In this document: piece by piece, positions 2,483 to 64,000 of the stretch | How positions within the stretch are numbered: the stretch's first letter is position 1 | Layout of the letters: every line of letters begins with the position of its first letter | DNA from: an uncultured Planctomycetia bacterium | GTDB lineage: Bacteria > Omnitrophota > Gorgyraeia > 2-02-FULL-51-18 | Length of the DNA stretch: 64,000 nucleotides | Reading direction: 5' to 3' | Assembly (NCBI GenBank): GCA_964642015.1 | Contig: CAZXLF010000002.1 | Location: 287,678-351,677, forward strand | The notes under the pieces: model-generated | Databases searched by the model: none | Told to the model about the DNA's origin: nothing | What the model saw: only the letters and a program-made list of their open reading frames with translations | Position numbers and translations under genes: made by a program

Positions 2483-3228
2483 GCGGGATCGAGCTGAAAA
2501 CAGAGCAAGAGCTGAGCGTTATGCGCTCCGCGGGCCGTATTGTTTCGAAACTCCTCAAGCTAATGGAAAAGGAAGTAAAACCGGGGATAACCACAAAAAA
2601 GCTTGATGTGATTGCCGAAGCTTTTATACGTGGCGAAGGTGCGGAACCGGCATTTAAAGGTTATTATGGTTTTCCGGCAAGTATCTGCGCGTCTGTGAAT
2701 GAAGAAGTTGTTCACGGGATTCCCGGAACAAAAATTTTGAAAGAAGGCGACATCATCGGCATTGATGTCGGGGTGAAACTCGACGGCTTTTATTCAGATG
2801 CGGCGCGCACTTTCGCGGTCGGCCGTATCGATAAAGAAAGCCAGCGCTTGATTGATATTACACGTGAAGCGATGGTGCGCGGGATAAGCCAGGCTATTGA
2901 AGGAAATCGGCTGACTGATATCTCATGGGCGGTGCAGCAATTCGCCGAAGATAACGGCTTATCCGTCGTAAAACAATATGTCGGCCATGGTATTGGACGG
3001 AACCTGCACGAAGAACCGCAGGTCCCTAATTACGGGAAACCGCAGCAGGGTCCGAAGCTCGTAGAAGGTATGGCGCTTGCGATCGAGCCGATGCTGAATG
3101 TGGGTTCGGCCGATGTGGAGCTTCTGTCCGACGGGTGGACAGTGGTCACCAAAGACCGTAAAAGGTCCGGGCATTTTGAGCAGACAATTTTTGTCCGTAA
3201 AACAAAAGCGGAGGTCGTTACTGAGTAG
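2479..3228 (+). CDS. map: type I methionine aminopeptidase
   Basis: 249 aa. The pita-bread fold motifs [41 protein letters not shown] and [11 protein letters not shown] are present. Its ATGA start overlaps the adk stop. Confidence 0.9.
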
Positions 3229-3229
3229 T

Positions 3230-3448
3230 ATGGCTAAAGAAGAAGCAGTTCAGGTAGAGGGGACCGTTGTAGAATCATTGCCAAACGCAATGTTCCGCGT
3301 TGAACTGCAGAATCAGCATCTAGTGCTGGCGCATGTTTCAGGCAAGATGCGGATGAATTTTATCAGGATATTGCCGGGTGATAAAGTGATGCTGGAGTTG
3401 TCGCCTTACGATCTGACGCGCGGCCGCATCATTTATCGCGTGAAATAA
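3230..3448 (+). CDS. infA: translation initiation factor IF-1
   Basis: 72 aa: [70 protein letters not shown], an IF-1 S1-like fold. It is an internal ATG of the 3098..3448 ORF, located just after the map stop. Confidence 0.9.
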
Positions 3449-3475
3449 AGTTAAATTGAGGGGAGCAGAAATAAA

Positions 3476-5069: not shown

Positions 5070-6074
5070 ATGGGAATTGTTTTAAGATCATTTGAAATAC
5101 CTAAGAAACTTGAGTGCGATGAGGAGTCGCTGACCAACGAATACGGCAAGTTCGTGGCCGAGCCGTTCGAAAGAGGTTACGGGGTTACGATCGGGAATTC
5201 ATTGCGGCGCGTACTTCTTTCATCTTTAGAAGGTGCTGCGGTGACGTCTATCAAAATTGATGGTGTTTCGCACGAATTCGGAACATTACCTGGTGTGGTT
5301 GAAGATGTTACTGAAATAGTTTTGAACGTTAAGAATCTTGTTTTAAGATCGCATACCCGGACGCCAAAAGTTCTCCGTATCGAGGTTGATCAGAAACAGG
5401 AAGTAACAGCCAAAGACATCATTACAGATGATACCGTGGAAGTCATCAACCCGGATCTTCATATTGCAACGGTCACCAAGAATGTCAAATTCCATATGGA
5501 GCTTGAAGTTCAGAAGGGCCGTGGATATGTTCCTGCCGACCGCAATAAGAAGGAAGGACAGCCTATAGGCGTGATCGCGATCGATTCTATTTTTACGCCT
5601 GTGAAGCGTGTGAATTTTCACGTTGAAGATACGCGCGTCGGGCAAATGACCGATTACGACAAGCTTATCATTGAGGTTTGGACGAACGGAAGCATTTCCC
5701 CTAAAGACTCGATGCTTTATGCCTCGAATATTTTGCAGAGGCACCTGGACGTGTTCGTGAATTTTGGCAAGCTGCCTGAGGAAGACATCGCGACCGAGCC
5801 GGCTGATAATAAAGAAGACGAGCTTTATAAGAGATTGGCTCAGCCGGTGTCCGAAATGGAGCTCTCAGTCCGCAGTGCGAACTGCTTGCGCGAAGCGCAT
5901 ATCAAGACGATCGGTGATCTTGTCAAAAAGACCGAAATGGAAATGCTCAAATACCGCAATTTCGGCAAAAAATCTCTGACCGAGATCACGAATATCTTGA
6001 AAGATATGGGCCTTGGATTCGGGATAACCGTTGACGAGAAAAAACTCAAAGAATATTCCGGAGAGTCTGAATGA
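5070..6074 (+). CDS. rpoA: DNA-directed RNA polymerase subunit alpha
   Basis: 334 aa. The N-terminal domain carries GYGVTIGNSLRRVLLSSLEGAAVT. The C-terminal domain carries ELSVRSANCLREAHIKTIGDLV (helix-hairpin-helix). Confidence 0.93.
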   Translation: MGIVLRSFEIPKKLECDEESLTNEYGKFVAEPFERGYGVTIGNSLRRVLLSSLEGAAVTSIKIDGVSHEFGTLPGVVEDVTEIVLNVKNLVLRSHTRTPKVLRIEVDQKQEVTAKDIITDDTVEVINPDLHIATVTKNVKFHMELEVQKGRGYVPADRNKKEGQPIGVIAIDSIFTPVKRVNFHVEDTRVGQMTDYDKLIIEVWTNGSISPKDSMLYASNILQRHLDVFVNFGKLPEEDIATEPADNKEDELYKRLAQPVSEMELSVRSANCLREAHIKTIGDLVKKTEMEMLKYRNFGKKSLTEITNILKDMGLGFGITVDEKKLKEYSGESE

Positions 6075-57815: not shown

Positions 57816-58175
57816 ATGAATAAAAGATATGATCTGGAAGATCGGACATTAAAATTTTCGAAAGAATGTATTGATTTAAGTAAGCTACTCGTTCGCGATT
57901 TGATTAACATCGAGCTTGTTAGCCAATTTATTAGAGCTGCAGGTTCAATCGGAGCAAATTATAGAGAAGCTAATGATTCGATCTCAAAGAAGGATTTTTA
58001 TTATCGAATCGGAATTTGCAGACGTGAAGCCAAGGAAACCAAATATTGGATCGATTTATTGCTTCATGCCAATCCAAAGCACTCTGAAAAAATAGAGCCT
58101 CTTTTGGATGAAGCGTTGCAATTATCTCGAATATTTGCAGCAATTTCTCATCAGAATGGAAAACCAAATGATTAA
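57816..58175 (+). CDS. four-helix-bundle protein (23S rRNA intervening-sequence protein family, PF05635-like)
   Basis: 119 aa, all-helical, with the family-typical IRAAGSIGANYREAN...SKKDFYYRIGICRREAKETKYWIDLL core. Confidence 0.7.
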   Translation: MNKRYDLEDRTLKFSKECIDLSKLLVRDLINIELVSQFIRAAGSIGANYREANDSISKKDFYYRIGICRREAKETKYWIDLLLHANPKHSEKIEPLLDEALQLSRIFAAISHQNGKPND

Positions 58176-58246: not shown

Positions 58247-59473
58247 TTGATGTATACCCGTTTAGATTACCAAGAAGCGCTGATGAATGCCTCCAAAGGC
58301 ATGATCCGCGTCAAAGATCCGGTGACGCTTTTAAGGATCATCACACGCTTCATCGACCGCCAGATGGGCGTGACGCACGTCGCGATCATGCTTTATGATA
58401 AGGCCCGCGACGCGTATGTGCTGATCGACTCGAAGGGCGAAGGCGGTGTCAAGATCCCTGTCGGCTATGTGAAAGTACCGGTTGATAATCCGATCGTCAG
58501 GTTTTTTCAGGCCTCGAACAACGGCGCATTTGCTCCCAAGGAAGCGCTGGTCTACAACGAGATCGACCATCTGCAGAATTTTGAGATCCTCGTAAATAAA
58601 AAAGAATCCCGTGCGATCCATTACGAGGATATCCGGAAACAAATGACGTATCTCAGGGCGGCGGTCTGTGTGCCGAGTTTTTACAAAAAGGAATTGATCG
58701 GTGTATTGGTCCTCGGTGATAAATTGTCCGGCGAGAAATATCAGGAAGAAGAGATCAGTCTTTTTGTGACGCTCGCCAATGACGTCGCGATGGCCGTGAA
58801 GAACGCCGAACTGATCAAAGATTTAAAGAGCGCCTATGAAAAAGAACATTTTCTTTTTATTCAGACTTCAGTGGCTCTGGCGACCGCGATCGATGCACGC
58901 GATCGCTATACACACGGGCACTCCGAGCGCGTATCGCATTACAGCTTGGTGATCGCCAAACAATTGATAGACAGCGGCCGGATTGAATTTGAACGTGAAT
59001 TCATGGAGACCGTACAGCTTTCAGCGCTTTTGCATGATGTGGGCAAGATCGGTATTCGCGATCAGATCCTGAATAAGCCCGATAAACTGACCGCTGAAGA
59101 ATATGAAACCATGAAAACGCATGTGATGATCGGCGCGTCGATCGTGAAGCCTGTCAAGGGATTGACACATTTAATGGATGGGATCATGTACCATCATGAA
59201 AGATTTGACGGGAAAGGTTATCCTCAAGGCCTGAAAGGGAAAGATATCCCTATCATTGGCCGCATCGTGCATGTCGCCGATGCATATGACACGATCATGA
59301 CGGCGCGATCTTACAAAGAAGCTTCGTCATCAGAACCCGCATTCAAGGAACTGATGCGCTGTAAGGGTACTCAATTTGATCCCGATATGGTGGATGCTTT
59401 TTATGAGGCTTATAAATTGGGACGTCTCACCAAGCGCGACTACACTAGTTTTGATTTTTCAAAGTTACACTAA
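58247..59473 (+). CDS. GAF domain-containing HD-GYP phosphodiesterase (c-di-GMP signalling)
   Basis: N-terminal GAF-like region. HD-GYP motifs HGHSERVSHYS, LLHDVGKIGI and HHERFDGKGYPQGL. Confidence 0.8.
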   Translation: MMYTRLDYQEALMNASKGMIRVKDPVTLLRIITRFIDRQMGVTHVAIMLYDKARDAYVLIDSKGEGGVKIPVGYVKVPVDNPIVRFFQASNNGAFAPKEALVYNEIDHLQNFEILVNKKESRAIHYEDIRKQMTYLRAAVCVPSFYKKELIGVLVLGDKLSGEKYQEEEISLFVTLANDVAMAVKNAELIKDLKSAYEKEHFLFIQTSVALATAIDARDRYTHGHSERVSHYSLVIAKQLIDSGRIEFEREFMETVQLSALLHDVGKIGIRDQILNKPDKLTAEEYETMKTHVMIGASIVKPVKGLTHLMDGIMYHHERFDGKGYPQGLKGKDIPIIGRIVHVADAYDTIMTARSYKEASSSEPAFKELMRCKGTQFDPDMVDAFYEAYKLGRLTKRDYTSFDFSKLH

Positions 59474-59483
59474 CGATCCTAAT

Positions 59484-59856
59484 GTCATTCTGAGCGAGCT
59501 TTAGCGAGCCAAGAATCTCATCACCAGATTGATGTCAATGCATGTACGCGGCGGCTATGTTTATATAGTTACAAATAGCTTCAATAGCGTGATTTATACT
59601 GGAGTTACCAGCGATCTGAAAAAGAGGGCATTTCAGCATCGACAAAAAGAAATAGAAGGTTTTAGTAAGAGATACAATCTTACAAAATTAGTTTATTATG
59701 AAGTAGCTGATAGGATTGAAAGCGCGATCTTAAGAGAGAAACAGATAAAGGGATTACTTAGAAAGAAAAAGATCGATTTAATTGAAGGCATGAATCCTTC
59801 ATGGAGAGATTTATTTCATGATCTATGATGAGATTCTTCGCTTCGCTCAGAATGAC
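59484..59856. mobile_element. GIY-YIG gene bracketed by inverted repeats (candidate miniature homing/mobile cassette)
   Basis: Left arm 59484-59523 GTCATTCTGAGCGAGCTTTAGCGAGCCAAGAATCTCATCA. Right arm 59826-59856 TGATGAGATTCTTCGCTTCGCTCAGAATGAC. The 14- and 13-bp terminal arms (GTCATTCTGAGCGA / AAGAATCTCATCA) are perfect inverted matches. The gene stop TGA lies in the right arm. Confidence 0.55.
59529..59828 (+). CDS. GIY-YIG nuclease family protein (small, stand-alone)
   Basis: GGYVYIVTNSFNSVIYTGVTSDLKKRAFQHRQ carries the GIY...YIG core and the conserved Arg/His region. 99 aa. Confidence 0.8.
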   Translation: MMSMHVRGGYVYIVTNSFNSVIYTGVTSDLKKRAFQHRQKEIEGFSKRYNLTKLVYYEVADRIESAILREKQIKGLLRKKKIDLIEGMNPSWRDLFHDL

Positions 59857-59885
59857 GGATGGCGTGAATTTCGTTTCACTCAGTG

Positions 59886-61511
59886 TTAGGATGACAGTGG
59901 AGCTGGTAAAGTTACCGTGATACTCGTCCCTTTTAAATTTTCACTCCCTACCTCGATCTTCCCGCCATGCTTTGTAATGATCCCGTGAACGATAGAAAGT
60001 CCTAGGCCTGTCCCGTCTTCCTTAGTGGAGAAGAAAGGATCAAAGATATGCTCTAGTTGGTCTTTGGGGATGCCTGAACCGGTGTCGGAGATAGTTATCA
60101 GCAGACAGGAGTCAGTAGACAGCAGACTCGTGCCAACACTCAACATCCCGCCATTGGGCATAGCTTGGATGCTATTGATGAAGATATTCAGGAAGGCCTG
60201 CTTCAGCTGGTTTTTGTCCACTGCGATGACAGGACGGATCTTGTAGTTTTTGGTAACTTCTATCTTGTTCTTCAAAAGATTACTATTTAGCAAATTCAAT
60301 GTATCATCCAATATATCTGTGATGGATTCGGGCTTAAGCTCAAGCTCTTTAGGTTTTGAAAACTCCAAAAGCTGCTTCACAATGTTATTTACTCGATCTA
60401 CTTCATCCACGACTATCCTTGAGAACTTCTCTCTAAAACCGGGATCATCATACTTTTGAGGCAGATACTCGGCAAAGGTCTTGATGGACGTGAGAGGATT
60501 CTTTATCTCATGAGCCATGCCTGCAGCTAAGGTAGCTACGGCTTTCATTTGATCAGCTTTTTGGACGAAGCCCTTTAATTTGATATTTTCTTCCATGATT
60601 TTTTCAGGGTCTATTTTGAAGAAATATTTATCCAAGACTTTTTGAATTTTTGATCTCAACGGATTAAAGACAATAGCAATGACCAAAGATGCGATGATGG
60701 CAATGAATATTGAGCGATAACCTATATATGATTGGAAAATATATTCGCTAATCAGAATTATTGAGAGATAAATAAAAGTTAAAATAAATATGAGCAAAGA
60801 ATAAACAAAACTTCTTCGGATGATAATATCAACGTCAAGTAGTTTGTGCCTGACGATTGCGTATGTGGTTATAGTGGCAAAACCTGTAACAAGGATATAG
60901 CCAAAAGGATAGATCTCTAGACCGAATTTTGGTAAGTAATCGGCAGCTCCAATAATAAAAATACATAGAGATATCGCGTAATATTTAAAGCGCTGGTAAT
61001 CATCCACATTCAAATCTTTATAAGCTATCTTGGCGGTGCCATAGAAAACAACGATGCATCTAACCGCAATGAAAAATGTCCAAAATGCATAAATGATCAT
61101 CAATGGACCGCCTATTGGATAATAACCCCAATAGTGTTTAATAAGTCGAGGCAGATAAGAGGGTAGTGTCCAAACTAAAATAGAGGAAGTCATAGCATAT
61201 ACCAGCCCGAAACCAGCTAATATAACATCTATTTTTTTCTTATAAGATCCAACAATAGCTAACATAAAGAAATAAACGGCTGGTGAAACATAAATAGCGG
61301 ATGTATGGCCCACTTTTCCAAAGATCATCGCGTCGTAATAATTATTCATTGAATACATAACACCATAGGAAAATAACCACATAAAACTGAAAAATGTCAG
61401 GAGAAAGCAGGCTTGGTTTTTTTTAGATCTAGGATTTGAAATAAGAACAAATATACCCAGCGAAAGTGTATATATTGAAACAACAAAATTCGGGATAGAG
61501 TATGGGTTCAT
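59886..61511 (-). CDS. membrane sensor histidine kinase, paralog A
   Basis: 541 aa. About 8 N-terminal TM helices. H-box AAGMAHEIKNPLTSI. HATPase_c with DTGSGIPKD and GTGLGLSIVHGII. Confidence 0.85.
   Translation of the reverse strand: MNPYSIPNFVVSIYTLSLGIFVLISNPRSKKNQACFLLTFFSFMWLFSYGVMYSMNNYYDAMIFGKVGHTSAIYVSPAVYFFMLAIVGSYKKKIDVILAGFGLVYAMTSSILVWTLPSYLPRLIKHYWGYYPIGGPLMIIYAFWTFFIAVRCIVVFYGTAKIAYKDLNVDDYQRFKYYAISLCIFIIGAADYLPKFGLEIYPFGYILVTGFATITTYAIVRHKLLDVDIIIRRSFVYSLLIFILTFIYLSIILISEYIFQSYIGYRSIFIAIIASLVIAIVFNPLRSKIQKVLDKYFFKIDPEKIMEENIKLKGFVQKADQMKAVATLAAGMAHEIKNPLTSIKTFAEYLPQKYDDPGFREKFSRIVVDEVDRVNNIVKQLLEFSKPKELELKPESITDILDDTLNLLNSNLLKNKIEVTKNYKIRPVIAVDKNQLKQAFLNIFINSIQAMPNGGMLSVGTSLLSTDSCLLITISDTGSGIPKDQLEHIFDPFFSTKEDGTGLGLSIVHGIITKHGGKIEVGSENLKGTSITVTLPAPLSS
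59943..60566. repeat. ~625-bp near-identical duplicate (copy 1) covering the HisKA/HATPase_c-coding 3' part of kinase A
   Basis: Base-by-base comparison with 61554-62186 shows only scattered mismatches. The + strand ORFs 60025..60246 and 61638..61859 translate identically except I/M and a few residues. Confidence 0.85.
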
Positions 61512-63130
61512 GTTTTAAGAAAAGATATTTTAAATATTGTGTGTTTATTTATTTCACTTCCTACCTCGATCTCTCCGCCATGCTTAGTAATGATCCCATG
61601 AACGATAGAAAGTCCTAGGCCTGTCCCGTCTTCCTTAGTGGAGAAGAAAGGATCAAAGATATGCTCTAGTTGGTCTTTGGGGATGCCTGAACCGGTGTCG
61701 GAGATAGTTATCAGCAGACAGGAGTCAGTAGACAGCAGACTCGTGCCAACACTCAACATCCCGCCATTGGGCATGGCCTGGATGCTGTTGATGAAGATAT
61801 TGAGGAACGCCTGCTTTAGCTGGTTCTTATCGACGGAAATAGTAGGGGTGTATTTGTAGTTCTTTACCACCTCTATTTTGTTCTTTAAGAGATTGCTGTT
61901 CAGTAGATTAAGCGTATCATCCAATATATCCGTAATGGATTCTGGCTTAAGCTCAAGCTCTTTAGGTTTTGAAAACTCCAAAAGCTGCTTTACAATGTTA
62001 TTTACTCGATCTACTTCATCCACGACAATCCTTGAGAACTTCTCTCTAAAACCGGGATCATCATACTTTTGAGGCAGATACTCGGCAAAGGTCTTGATGG
62101 ACGTGAGAGGATTCTTTATCTCATGAGCCATGCCTGCAGCTAAGGTAGCTACAGCTTTCATTTGATCGGCTTTTTGGACAGTTTCCATAAGTTTCATGTT
62201 CTGTTCCGCCAATTCTACAGGAGAGGCTTTAAAAAAAATTTGGTTTAATGATTTCATCAAAAAATTGTGAAGAGGTATAAAAACGATAGAGATGATTAAA
62301 GTGACGAGATAAGTAAAAAATATTGATGAGTGTCCAAAATATATTTTCGAAAGAGCATTAGCTGCGAGAATTAAAAATATCAGGACGAATGATATCAAGC
62401 TGAAGATAGCGGAATATAAAAAACCTTTTTTAATGGCGAGGTTTATATCCATCAATCGATGTTTAATGATTGCATAAAAAGTAATCACCGAAAATAAGAT
62501 CATGAATATAAACCCAAGCGGGTAATAATCTACACCGTAAGTCGATAAGTAATCAGTAGATCCGCACAGGGCAATTGCAAATGTGAAAAACACATATTTA
62601 ATTTTATTAGCAAAATCCGTATTTTGTTCCTTATGCTTTTTATAAGCTTGATATAGCTCGATAAAAGAAGTTGTGAAGACGCCGAAGAAAAAAATTAAGT
62701 AAATGCCATGCAGCCAGTTGGCTCGACTGGAGTAGCCCCATGGATAATGAATATTTCCGCTTAATAACATTCTTGAAAACCATAGGAATAAAATAAATAT
62801 GAGCGATACGATATAAAAATATTTTAAAATTCTGTGGCGGCTTTTTAACTCTAAGAAATTAATGATGAAGCCATAATAAAAGACGGGAATCAGAACAACG
62901 CCTGTATATAAGATTTTGCTGAATATAAATGCGTCGGATTCGTAGGCCATCAAATTCATTAAAGAAAAACCCATTTGCCAAACCATGCAGGCCAGTGCAA
63001 AGAGAGCAAAGTATTTGTTGGTCGATGAATATGGATTTTTATAAAAAGCGAATAGACCTAGAAATAATACGATGAGCGAACTAAAAAATGGTGGAGCAGC
63101 GTAAGGTATTAAAGAAGTTTCAATCCTCAT
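61508..63130 (-). CDS. membrane sensor histidine kinase, paralog B (tandem with A, overlapping stop/start)
   Basis: 540 aa. Same architecture as paralog A. The C-terminal ~210 aa are almost identical to A. The N-terminal TM sensor is only about 40% identical. Confidence 0.85.
   Translation of the reverse strand: MRIETSLIPYAAPPFFSSLIVLFLGLFAFYKNPYSSTNKYFALFALACMVWQMGFSLMNLMAYESDAFIFSKILYTGVVLIPVFYYGFIINFLELKSRHRILKYFYIVSLIFILFLWFSRMLLSGNIHYPWGYSSRANWLHGIYLIFFFGVFTTSFIELYQAYKKHKEQNTDFANKIKYVFFTFAIALCGSTDYLSTYGVDYYPLGFIFMILFSVITFYAIIKHRLMDINLAIKKGFLYSAIFSLISFVLIFLILAANALSKIYFGHSSIFFTYLVTLIISIVFIPLHNFLMKSLNQIFFKASPVELAEQNMKLMETVQKADQMKAVATLAAGMAHEIKNPLTSIKTFAEYLPQKYDDPGFREKFSRIVVDEVDRVNNIVKQLLEFSKPKELELKPESITDILDDTLNLLNSNLLKNKIEVVKNYKYTPTISVDKNQLKQAFLNIFINSIQAMPNGGMLSVGTSLLSTDSCLLITISDTGSGIPKDQLEHIFDPFFSTKEDGTGLGLSIVHGIITKHGGEIEVGSEINKHTIFKISFLKT
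61554..62186. repeat. ~630-bp near-identical duplicate (copy 2) in kinase B
   Basis: See copy 1. Identity stops abruptly at both ends (the extreme C-termini ...ENLKGTSITVTLPAPLSS and ...EINKHTIFKISFLKT differ). Confidence 0.85.
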
Positions 63131-63550: not shown

Positions 63551-64000
63551 TGAGCACCAGAACACTAGAGCACCAGCGCGCTGAAACACCAGAATGCTAG
63601 ACACTAGTTAAAGGCTTTTATAGAATCTCCATAAGAGATTTCCGACCTCTTTTCTTAGGCCTTGCAATTTGTTGTGTTCGTTTTGATCTAAATATTTCAA
63701 CCTTAATATGAAATCCAGCAAATATTCAGTTTCTGCCAGCGACCCTAATGCTATATTAACAAACTGTTTTAGCTCCCTTTTTCCTTGCCTTCCATAACCT
63801 TCGACTATATTTGCAGGCACTGATAGAGAGGCTCGTCTGATTTGAGAAATAAGTCCGTACGTTTCTTCTTTGGGCAATGATTTTGTAGAGATATAAATTT
63901 GATAGGCCAGTTCATCAGCTTTTTGCCATACGATCAGTTTTCTGTACCCGTTTGCTATTACTTTTTCTTCTGGTGCTCTAGTAGCCAAGTGCTCTGGTGT
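63551..64000. repeat. inverted CACCAG-rich repeats bracketing the second four-helix-bundle gene
   Basis: 63551-63600 has GAGCACCAGAACACTAGAGCACCAGCGCGCTGAAACACCAGAATGCTAG. 63961-64000 has TCTGGTGCTCTAGTAGCCAAGTGCTCTGGTGT, whose reverse complement contains ACTAGAGCACCAGAAG. They share a 13-bp inverted match ACTAGAGCACCAG, and the CACCAG unit is repeated 4 times at one end and 2 times at the other. The right copy lies in the first codons of the gene. The window ends here, so the element may be truncated. Confidence 0.5.
63608..63988 (-). CDS. four-helix-bundle protein (23S rRNA intervening-sequence protein family), second copy
   Basis: YRKLIVWQKADELAYQIY...SLPKEETYGLISQIRRASLSVPANIVEGYGRQ...EYLLDFILRLKYL is the canonical family pattern. 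Probable TTG start. Confidence 0.75.
   Translation of the reverse strand: MATRAPEEKVIANGYRKLIVWQKADELAYQIYISTKSLPKEETYGLISQIRRASLSVPANIVEGYGRQGKRELKQFVNIALGSLAETEYLLDFILRLKYLDQNEHNKLQGLRKEVGNLLWRFYKSL

Follow-up and report, generated by a model that had tools for sequence, protein, structure and literature searches.

An Ssn-family nuclease gene between oriented hairpin repeats, probably a REP/RAYT-type insertion between convergent genes of an uncultured Omnitrophota bacterium

Introduction

In the Ssn family of site-specific endonucleases of single-stranded DNA (ssDNA), a small gene is accompanied by a hairpin repeat: NTS (CGTCATTCCCGCGMAVGCGGGAATCYRG) and related hairpins termed SRM flank ssnA, a 94-aa single-domain GIY-YIG gene, in many phyla (Chenal et al., Nat Commun 2025, PMC11893778). 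Here we describe a gene of this family, ssn, and the hairpins at its two ends in a stretch of 64,000 nucleotides (hereafter the window) from an uncultured Omnitrophota bacterium (GenBank assembly GCA_964642015.1, contig CAZXLF010000002.1, positions 287,678 to 351,677). Most Ssn genes are flanked by hairpin repeats of 20–50 nt. SsnA binds its hairpin solely as ssDNA and only one of the two strands of it, with the cut placed a few nucleotides upstream; it neither cuts double-stranded DNA (dsDNA) nor binds RNA. The GTC ahead of the palindrome governs cleavage and the C behind it governs binding; the substitutions Y6A, Y17A and E64A leave binding intact and abolish cleavage. In Neisseria meningitidis, SsnA lowers transformation by NTS-containing DNA. 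The NTS-ssnA-NTS arrangement was called “identical to” the architecture of insertion sequences and was likened to REP/RAYT, mobility not being shown (all PMC11893778). In the literature collection searched, no later paper on the family was found.

A second group of repeats, the CGTC-tagged REP superfamily, displays an unpaired CGTC or TGTC at one end and a stem that starts from A-T pairs (Di Nocera et al., BMC Genomics 2013, PMC3733652). These repeats occur mostly as inverted dimers, include dRS3 of Neisseria and RPE-4 and RPE-6 of Rickettsia, and were concluded to lack a dedicated transposase (PMC3733652).

An earlier inspection of the window (the sequence-only reading) had singled out a stand-alone GIY-YIG gene bracketed by inverted repeats and proposed a miniature homing or mobile cassette. 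Its remark that small orphan GIY-YIG genes have been little studied as to their mobility still holds true, though the gene-plus-hairpin architecture was published in 2025. The analysis presented here indicates that the locus is very probably an Ssn nuclease gene with two cognate hairpin copies, inserted between convergent genes as a selfish unit of the REP/RAYT type.

The ssn gene and its product

The ssn gene (59538–59828, plus strand) is located between convergent HD-GYP and histidine-kinase genes and encodes an Ssn-family nuclease of 96 residues with a GIY-YIG domain only, 100% identical to the database protein P0001, which starts at ATG 59538. The sequence-only reading had described 99 residues and an upstream arm 5 nt from the start codon; this is accurate for the mechanical open reading frame (ORF) that begins at TTG 59529, whereas the database form is 96 residues long and the left arm ends 14 nt before its ATG, the likely start. 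Pfam PF01541 (GIY-YIG) matches the ORF over residues 9–82 (E 1.4e-14), and no additional domain is present, in keeping with the Ssn family, whose single-domain proteins comprise ~94–100 residues. All predicted catalytic residues were identified (Y9, Y20, R30, H34, E67 and N86), and 25 homologues show no variation at Y20, R30, H34, E67 and N86 and almost none at Y9. The AlphaFold (AF2) model of the protein (pLDDT 86) adopts a GIY-YIG fold, and its best structural matches in the PDB are UPF0213 BH0048 (1zg2), the UvrC N-terminal domain (1yd6) and Slx1; no Ssn structure was found among the PDB entries searched. An independent assembly of the same organism (L001) agrees with the window at 99.94% identity over 58400–60003, so that the arrangement is no assembly artefact. 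The G+C content of the ssn ORF is 34%, compared with 45% for the window, and is uninformative because the adjacent kinase is also low (38%).

Comparison of the window protein with an SsnA orthologue from N. gonorrhoeae revealed 52.8% identity (tblastn, E 2e-22, in the plasmid collection searched). The gonococcal matches derive from two N. gonorrhoeae chromosomes mis-filed among plasmids, and the orthologue, from a single N. gonorrhoeae locus, was used as a stand-in for SsnA of N. meningitidis. The E-value lies below the tblastn threshold of 1e-10 by which Ssn homology was defined in PMC11893778. In a pairwise BLASTP alignment, 47 of 89 positions are identical without gaps, and Y9, Y20 and E67 align with the equivalents of SsnA Y6, Y17 and E64 (assigned in the orthologue by position in the 94-aa SsnA) with identical spacing (11 and 47). 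Around the gonococcal gene itself, seven or more sequences match the published NTS pattern exactly. On this sequence evidence the window protein is a member of the Ssn family, for which cd10448 (GIY-YIG_unchar_3) is the expected top CDD assignment and whose site-specific endonucleases act on ssDNA, and it would be expected to cleave ssDNA as they do; a match to the SRM pattern is an associated feature of the family and not a defining one. Identity as YhbQ/UPF0213 was considered and rejected, since a PDB sequence search gave only a marginal match to UPF0213 (1zg2, E 0.059). The NCBIfam and PADLOC profile libraries held no meaningful match for the protein.

The protein also bears on the proposal that the gene is a homing enzyme. 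With free-standing GIY-YIG homing endonucleases such as I-TevI and T4 Seg it shares the catalytic domain, an intergenic location and a patchy distribution. Unlike them, it comprises the catalytic domain only, lacks their DNA-binding domain, and has no phage or intron context. The match to I-TevI (PDB 1mk0) was marginal (E 1), the group I intron endonuclease model TIGR01453 scored 18 bits against a cutoff of 56 (E 0.0018), and no homologue was found in 50,697 phage genomes. Characterised Ssn relatives, moreover, spare dsDNA. The designation as a homing enzyme is thus replaced by membership of the Ssn family, and the matching proposal for the arms is taken up below with the insertion site.

The gonococcal locus used for comparison (L088; NZ_CP119142.1, 1880219–1883485, from a 2.17-Mb chromosome filed as a plasmid in PLSDB) displays a peculiarity of its own. 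Its ssnA orthologue lacks an ATG in the conserved frame, which runs from 1501; the ATG at 1494 belongs to a different frame and reaches a stop after 10 codons, and no protein is annotated. The ssnA gene of this strain may be a pseudogene, though many NTS repeats surround it.

The flanking hairpins

A repeat finder recovered two pairs of inverted arms around the gene, 59484–59497 with 59843–59856 (14 nt, 100% complementary) and 59507–59523 with 59826–59842 (17 nt, 94% complementary); together with the Pfam match, this confirms the sequence-only reading of a GIY-YIG gene between inverted arms. The left hairpin repeat (59484–59523, plus strand), an SRM-like or CGTC-tagged REP unit, has the sequence GTCATTCTGAG-CGAGCTTTAGCGAGC-CAAGAATCTC(ATCA) and lies 10 nt past the stop codon of the HD-GYP gene. 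The right hairpin repeat (59826–59856, minus strand) has the sequence GTCATTCTGAGCGAAGCGAAGAATCTC(ATCA) and reads GTCATTCTGAGCGAAGCGAAGAATCTCATCA on the strand that reads GTCAT. As previously reported, the right arm overlaps the ssn stop codon: it opens with that TGA (59826–59828), which is shared by the tail of the hairpin and the end of the gene. The arms had been said to differ only in a central spacer, and the left one does contain nine extra central bases (GCTTTAGCG), but a G-to-C change (3' GA to CA) distinguishes them as well; the left arm is thus a slightly degenerate copy whose distal part is 9 nt longer. A relic of a third hairpin (59858–59896, minus strand), of which the head half alone is recognisable (head TGTCATCCT at 59888–59896), is located 40 nt beyond the right arm and overlaps the end of the histidine-kinase gene, to which it supplies the ..LSS codons and the stop.

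Each arm displays the unit layout GTC-AT-NNN-GA[variable stem-loop]GA-N'N'N'-AT-C, comprising an unpaired GTC head, a 5-bp stem (ATTCT/AGAAT), tandem G.A/A.G pairs, a variable distal stem of at least 2 bp, a loop of 3–4 nt, a C directly after the palindrome and a CTC tail. Both arms read GTC-ATTCT...AGAAT-C, with GTC 5' and C 3' of the palindrome on both sides of the gene, and both GTC heads point away from it. When compared with the CGTC-tagged REPs, the left arm (TGTC-AT..) and the right arm (CGTC-AT..) present the tag and the first A-T and T-A pairs, while the 8–9-bp stem, the 4–5-nt loop and the near-CCA tail were not found in the arms. The exact 14-mer occurs nowhere else in the 64 kb beyond the two arms, and matches with three mismatches are at chance level. 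A fortuitous inverted repeat, for which the shortness of the arms would be the sole argument, has a negligible probability given that the window has no third copy of the 14-mer and that the same motif flanks homologues in many phyla; the enrichment and the covariation described below refute it as well.

Hairpins at homologous loci

A comparison of 80 loci encoding homologues of the window protein (51–63% identical), which derive from Omnitrophota, Chloroflexota, Bacteroidota, cyanobacteria, alpha-, gamma- and deltaproteobacteria, CPR and others, revealed that hairpins of strict definition are concentrated at the gene: there are 4.4 per kb within 200 nt of it and 0.13 per kb farther off, a 33-fold enrichment. 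The association is oriented. Among 47 loci with an upstream hairpin, the nearest one lies on the strand of the gene (+) in 37; among 45 with a downstream hairpin, the nearest one lies on the other strand (−) in 33 and frequently abuts the stop codon, as in the window. The architecture + gene − is displayed by 21 of the 34 loci with hairpins on both sides. Some loci contain the stem variant of the window (ATTCT/AGAAT, ATCCT/AGGAT or ATGCT/AGCAT), while the majority carry a sister hairpin variant, GTCATTGCGAG...CGAAGCAATCTC.

Base pairing within the arms is supported by covariation. Heads and tails were picked without demanding complementarity, and tails were shuffled 1000 times; all three variable positions of the stem are complementary in 207 of 249 head-tail pairs, against an expectation of 90 and a maximum of 107 in the shuffles, and 12 complementary stem types were seen. 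Each arm is a self-folding hairpin unit and not one half of a long-range structure, which the compensatory changes among copies support. The proposal of the sequence-only reading that the gene sits in the loop of a long-range stem is therefore abandoned.

Hairpins with this placement might alternatively be RNA elements (a terminator, an mRNA stabiliser or a translational regulator) whose position around ssn is incidental. Positions downstream of convergent genes are indeed common for REP-type hairpins, which can be transcribed (PMC3733652), only 10 nt separate the left hairpin from the HD-GYP stop, and one relative (L086, see below) has a different hairpin at the same place. No terminator-like site and no T-run were found at the hairpins, however, and RNA folding across the arms, a check that the sequence-only reading had recommended, returned energies no better than those of shuffled sequences. 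A permissive Rfam scan of 59300–60000 gave sub-threshold hits only (an lncRNA region and two snoRNAs, unrelated eukaryotic families), far below their gathering scores. SsnA, furthermore, does not bind RNA, and the 33-fold oriented enrichment at ssn would be left unexplained. An RNA role is accordingly very improbable. A hammerhead-like or other ribozyme, to which a CUGA...GAA motif had drawn attention, was rejected owing to a misfit of the core and no Rfam match.

Two features of individual loci are of separate interest. Some homologues are embedded in hairpin arrays of alternating orientation (+ − + gene − + − +), as in L069 (~2800–3450), L023, L013 and L051; in L069 the array of three hairpins upstream of the gene is repeated directly downstream, which suggests duplication or recombination between hairpin arrays. 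A Methylococcaceae locus (L008, 60% identical) contains an NTS-like hairpin, CGTCATTCCGGCATGGATTGCCGGAATCCAG, 28 nt upstream of the ssn match. This hairpin fits the published SRM pattern, unlike nearly all loci of its protein clade, and closely related nucleases thus evidently pair with different hairpin types.

Hairpins without the gene

Beyond the window, the exact 27-mer of the right arm was found in more than 120 metagenome contigs, a lower bound, mostly without the gene and often as gene-less doublets. The distance to the gene was checked at 80 of the 27-mer loci listed. An ssn homologue lies within 200 nt in 4 of them, 46 are free of one for 450 nt or more in both directions, and in 29 a nearby contig end precludes a judgement. 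Adjacent hairpin pairs are in the (+,−) order in 41 of 63 cases, 5–58 nt apart and devoid of a gene, which is the same order as that around ssn. These gene-less doublets relate to ssn cassettes as REPINs do to RAYT genes. In one relative (L083 5995–6087 and 7752–7844; also in L084), a (+,−) doublet is found in frame inside both of two tandem kinase paralogues, where it adds 38 residues (HPERSKNVIPTELNRKTREWRDLALDSSTRPIGLARND) to the ATPase domain relative to the window kinase, and these in-frame copies resemble the Rickettsia palindromic elements that lie inside genes.

The abundance of hairpins away from ssn is one argument for a different biological role, in which the nuclease would, as has been proposed for Neisseria, be a domesticated host function that trims or restricts incoming or exposed ssDNA at hairpins scattered over the genome, and the hairpins beside the gene would either be part of that general population or act in autoregulation. 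The reduced transformation by NTS-containing DNA that SsnA causes in N. meningitidis (PMC11893778) is consistent with it, as are the metagenome copies of the identical hairpin, mostly remote from ssn, and the hairpins inside and beside other genes in relatives. Two observations argue in the other direction. The 64-kb window contains just the three hairpins at the gene, which a solitary selfish unit fits better than genome-wide marking, and the distribution of ssn among relatives (following section) fits an accessory element better than a resident function. A host function is therefore considered unlikely, although less so than the other alternatives; it concerns the biological role alone, and the family assignment is undisputed by it.

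Insertion polymorphism at the HD-GYP/kinase junction

The HD-GYP protein has many close orthologues, and eight contigs that encode one were compared for synteny; the operon HK(7TM)-RR-RR-HD-GYP (HK, histidine kinase; RR, response regulator) is conserved in all of them. The ssn gene is absent from five of the eight and is located at another site in two others. The most informative relative is L082 (HD-GYP 89% identical), in which the HD-GYP gene and the convergent kinase gene overlap tail to tail by 29 nt, with no GIY-YIG gene, hairpin or palindrome between them. The contigs L085, L089, L090 and L091 (HD-GYP 86%, 84%, 79% and 79% identical, respectively) likewise have no ssn gene, and a hairpin scan, applied to L085 alone, found none there. 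In L083/L084 and L086/L087 (HD-GYP 89% and 80%, respectively) an ssn cassette composed of a + hairpin, the gene and a − hairpin is found between the response-regulator and HD-GYP genes. The empty-site check proposed in the sequence-only reading was thus positive, and its view of a discrete cassette inserted between signalling genes is borne out by L082 and by the cassettes located elsewhere in other relatives.

Alignment of the window with L082 delimits an insert of 433 bp (59474–59906). On the left, homology extends as far as the HD-GYP stop codon; on the right, it resumes at the Leu codon of the kinase tail, which changes from ...VTLKNQS* in L082 to ...VTLPAPLSS* in the window, the new codons and the stop being derived from the insert. 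An 8-bp direct repeat, AAAGTTAC, brackets the insert, with its left copy at 59461–59468 and its right copy, whose minus strand encodes V-T-L of the kinase tail, at 59908–59915; in L082 the octamer is single-copy and lies within the gene overlap. The pair could be a target-site duplication.

The same comparison bears on the proposal that a homing endonuclease occupies a palindromic target, with the arms as target halves or as a footprint. Its two attractions are that the gene was inserted between host genes at a site that exists in the empty state, and that gene-less (+,−) doublets with short spacers could in principle serve as targets. Both arms, however, are complete hairpins with compensatory changes and not half-sites, the empty site in L082 has neither hairpin nor palindrome, and the 27-mer occurs mostly far from ssn. 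Combined with the single-domain protein and its lack of phage relatives, these findings render homing improbable, if somewhat less so than an RNA role, and the insertion footprint in a palindrome suggested by the sequence-only reading is not upheld. Judged from these comparisons of sequence, the cassette is evolutionarily mobile and has a likeness to REP/RAYT, its mechanism of transposition being unproven.

Other small genes appear to come and go in the same neighbourhood. Two small PF05635 genes (23S rRNA-intervening-sequence/four-helix-bundle) are present in the window, at 57816–58175 (plus strand) and 63608–63988 (minus strand). The first is located between the response-regulator and HD-GYP genes, in a slot that is empty in five syntenic relatives and holds an ssn cassette in two. 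Neither has clear flanking hairpins, isolated GTCATT-like heads, perhaps due to chance, being all that was seen. This suggests that PF05635 is another small accessory gene that appears and disappears at the same intergenic sites. At the HD-GYP/kinase junction, where the window has ssn, toxin-antitoxin genes were identified in L083 (5254–5514; a PhdYeFM antitoxin) and L086 (5342–5867; an 85-aa gene with a ParE toxin). L086 additionally contains a solitary long hairpin, GTCATTGCGAG...GGAAGCAATCC (5200–5271), which starts 8 nt past the HD-GYP stop codon, the position of the left hairpin in the window. Small selfish genes apparently have a hotspot at this junction. Beyond it, the window contains two tandem histidine-kinase paralogues (59886–61511 and 61508–63130, both on the minus strand) whose stop and start overlap by 4 nt. 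Over ~200 residues, from KADQMKAVATLAAGMAHEIKNPL... onward, the two are almost identical, while their membrane halves differ, which indicates a recent duplication or gene conversion.

Discussion

The protein, the hairpins and the empty site are best accommodated by an Ssn nuclease gene that, with its hairpins, entered the junction as a selfish unit resembling REP/RAYT, a GIY-YIG nuclease taking the place of the tyrosine transposase. In this scheme, each arm would fold alone when the DNA becomes single-stranded, and the enzyme, by analogy with Neisseria SsnA, would recognise the hairpin on the GTCAT-reading strand and nick that strand ~3 nt 5' of the GTC. As the left copy is on the plus strand and the right copy is on the minus strand, one nick is predicted on each strand, near 59480 and near 59860, immediately beyond the ends of the cassette. 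The 433-bp unit (hairpin, gene, hairpin and relic hairpin) was inserted between the HD-GYP and kinase genes in the lineage of the window. More speculatively, the nicks could leave 3'-OH ends that prime strand-displacement synthesis across the cassette, a possible basis for its copying. Cleavage by the window protein, the positions of the nicks and movement of the cassette or the hairpins by the nuclease are what we infer from the characterised relatives and from the comparisons above.

Several observations weigh against this interpretation. The published SRM pattern, HGTCWYN(0-2)YYVSBRHN(0-5)WNVSBRGN(0-2)RNCYNB within 500 bp of the gene both upstream and downstream, which accompanies 42% of Ssn homologues (PMC11893778), has no match in the window, in neither of the arms; it matches near the gene in 2 of the 80 loci and on both sides of the gene in none, although the controls NTS and NTSvar match. 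The arms escape the pattern because tandem G.A pairs follow the 5-bp stem and the distal stem varies in length. The window hairpin is therefore a variant outside the published consensus and a putative Ssn substrate only. By the same token, SRM-based surveys undercount the association of gene and hairpin, since the pattern misses the variant that flanks most of the 80 closest homologues. Nearest-neighbour folding, whether as RNA or as DNA, gives the arms weak energies that do not surpass those of shuffles; such parameters model tandem G.A pairs poorly, and the case for hairpins consequently rests on covariation and not on stability. No hairpin copies were found in the window outside the cassette, which lends no support to a genome-wide population of targets in this organism. 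In N. gonorrhoeae the nearest hairpins are arranged (−, +), opposite to those of the window, and outward-pointing heads are thus a common but not a universal geometry. The AAAGTTAC pair could be a by-product of selection that preserved the ends of both overlapping genes, and with one case at hand this cannot be told from a target-site duplication. Finally, no Ssn cassette has been shown by experiment to transpose.

The locus shares with the Ssn/NTS system of Neisseria a single-domain GIY-YIG protein of ~94 residues with matching catalytic residues, oriented GTC-headed hairpins on both sides, stems that start with AT, a C after the palindrome, and hairpins that far outnumber genes and occur in doublets and arrays. 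It differs in the hairpin itself, where NTS has a perfect 8-bp stem and the window unit has a 5-bp stem, tandem G.A and a variable distal stem; in copy number, since pathogenic Neisseria carry hundreds of copies and the 64 kb of the window contain those of the cassette only; in geometry, which is − gene + in N. gonorrhoeae and + gene − with outward heads here; and in its host, an uncultured Omnitrophota bacterium for which there is no evidence on competence. The resemblance to CGTC-tagged REPs extends to the unpaired (C/T)GTC tag, the A-T and then T-A start of the stem, the short unpaired tail, the inverted dimers, the position after convergent genes and the in-frame copies within genes (the L083 kinases). 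In contrast to those repeats as described, which were concluded to have no enzyme of their own, a GIY-YIG gene is a constant companion here and in PMC11893778. With REP/RAYT and REPIN systems, the cassette shares one small nuclease gene between two inverted hairpins, dispersed doublets that lack the gene and, in all likelihood, recognition of the hairpin in ssDNA. RAYTs are HUH/Y1 transesterases related to IS200/IS605 that act with a GTAG tag, whereas the enzyme considered here is a hydrolytic GIY-YIG nuclease with a GTC tag, and the likeness is architectural only. No covalent intermediate is expected for a GIY-YIG enzyme, so that a cut-and-rejoin mechanism cannot be assumed.

A bolder proposal is that the cassette is an autonomous mobile element and that the gene-less (+,−) doublets are its non-autonomous derivatives, moved in trans by a hydrolytic GIY-YIG ssDNA nickase. 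We regard this as a tentative possibility, rather less probable than its negation. Were it true, a REPIN/RAYT-like system would have been built on an unrelated enzyme, and it would provide the CGTC-tagged REPs, among them the in-frame Rickettsia palindromic elements, with their “missing transposase”. The window and L082 would then constitute a direct record of one insertion (433 bp) with a short target duplication (8 bp, AAAGTTAC).

As it stands, the locus adds one more ordinary member to a family already described in 2025 and leaves existing knowledge of that family unchanged. It extends the pairing of Ssn proteins with hairpins to the Omnitrophota and to a hairpin variant with tandem G.A and a variable distal stem. 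The clean pair of occupied and empty sites, along with relatives that carry the cassette elsewhere, represents the type of evidence needed to test the still unproven mobility of such cassettes, and every additional pair of protein and hairpin is a potential reagent for cutting ssDNA with a new specificity.

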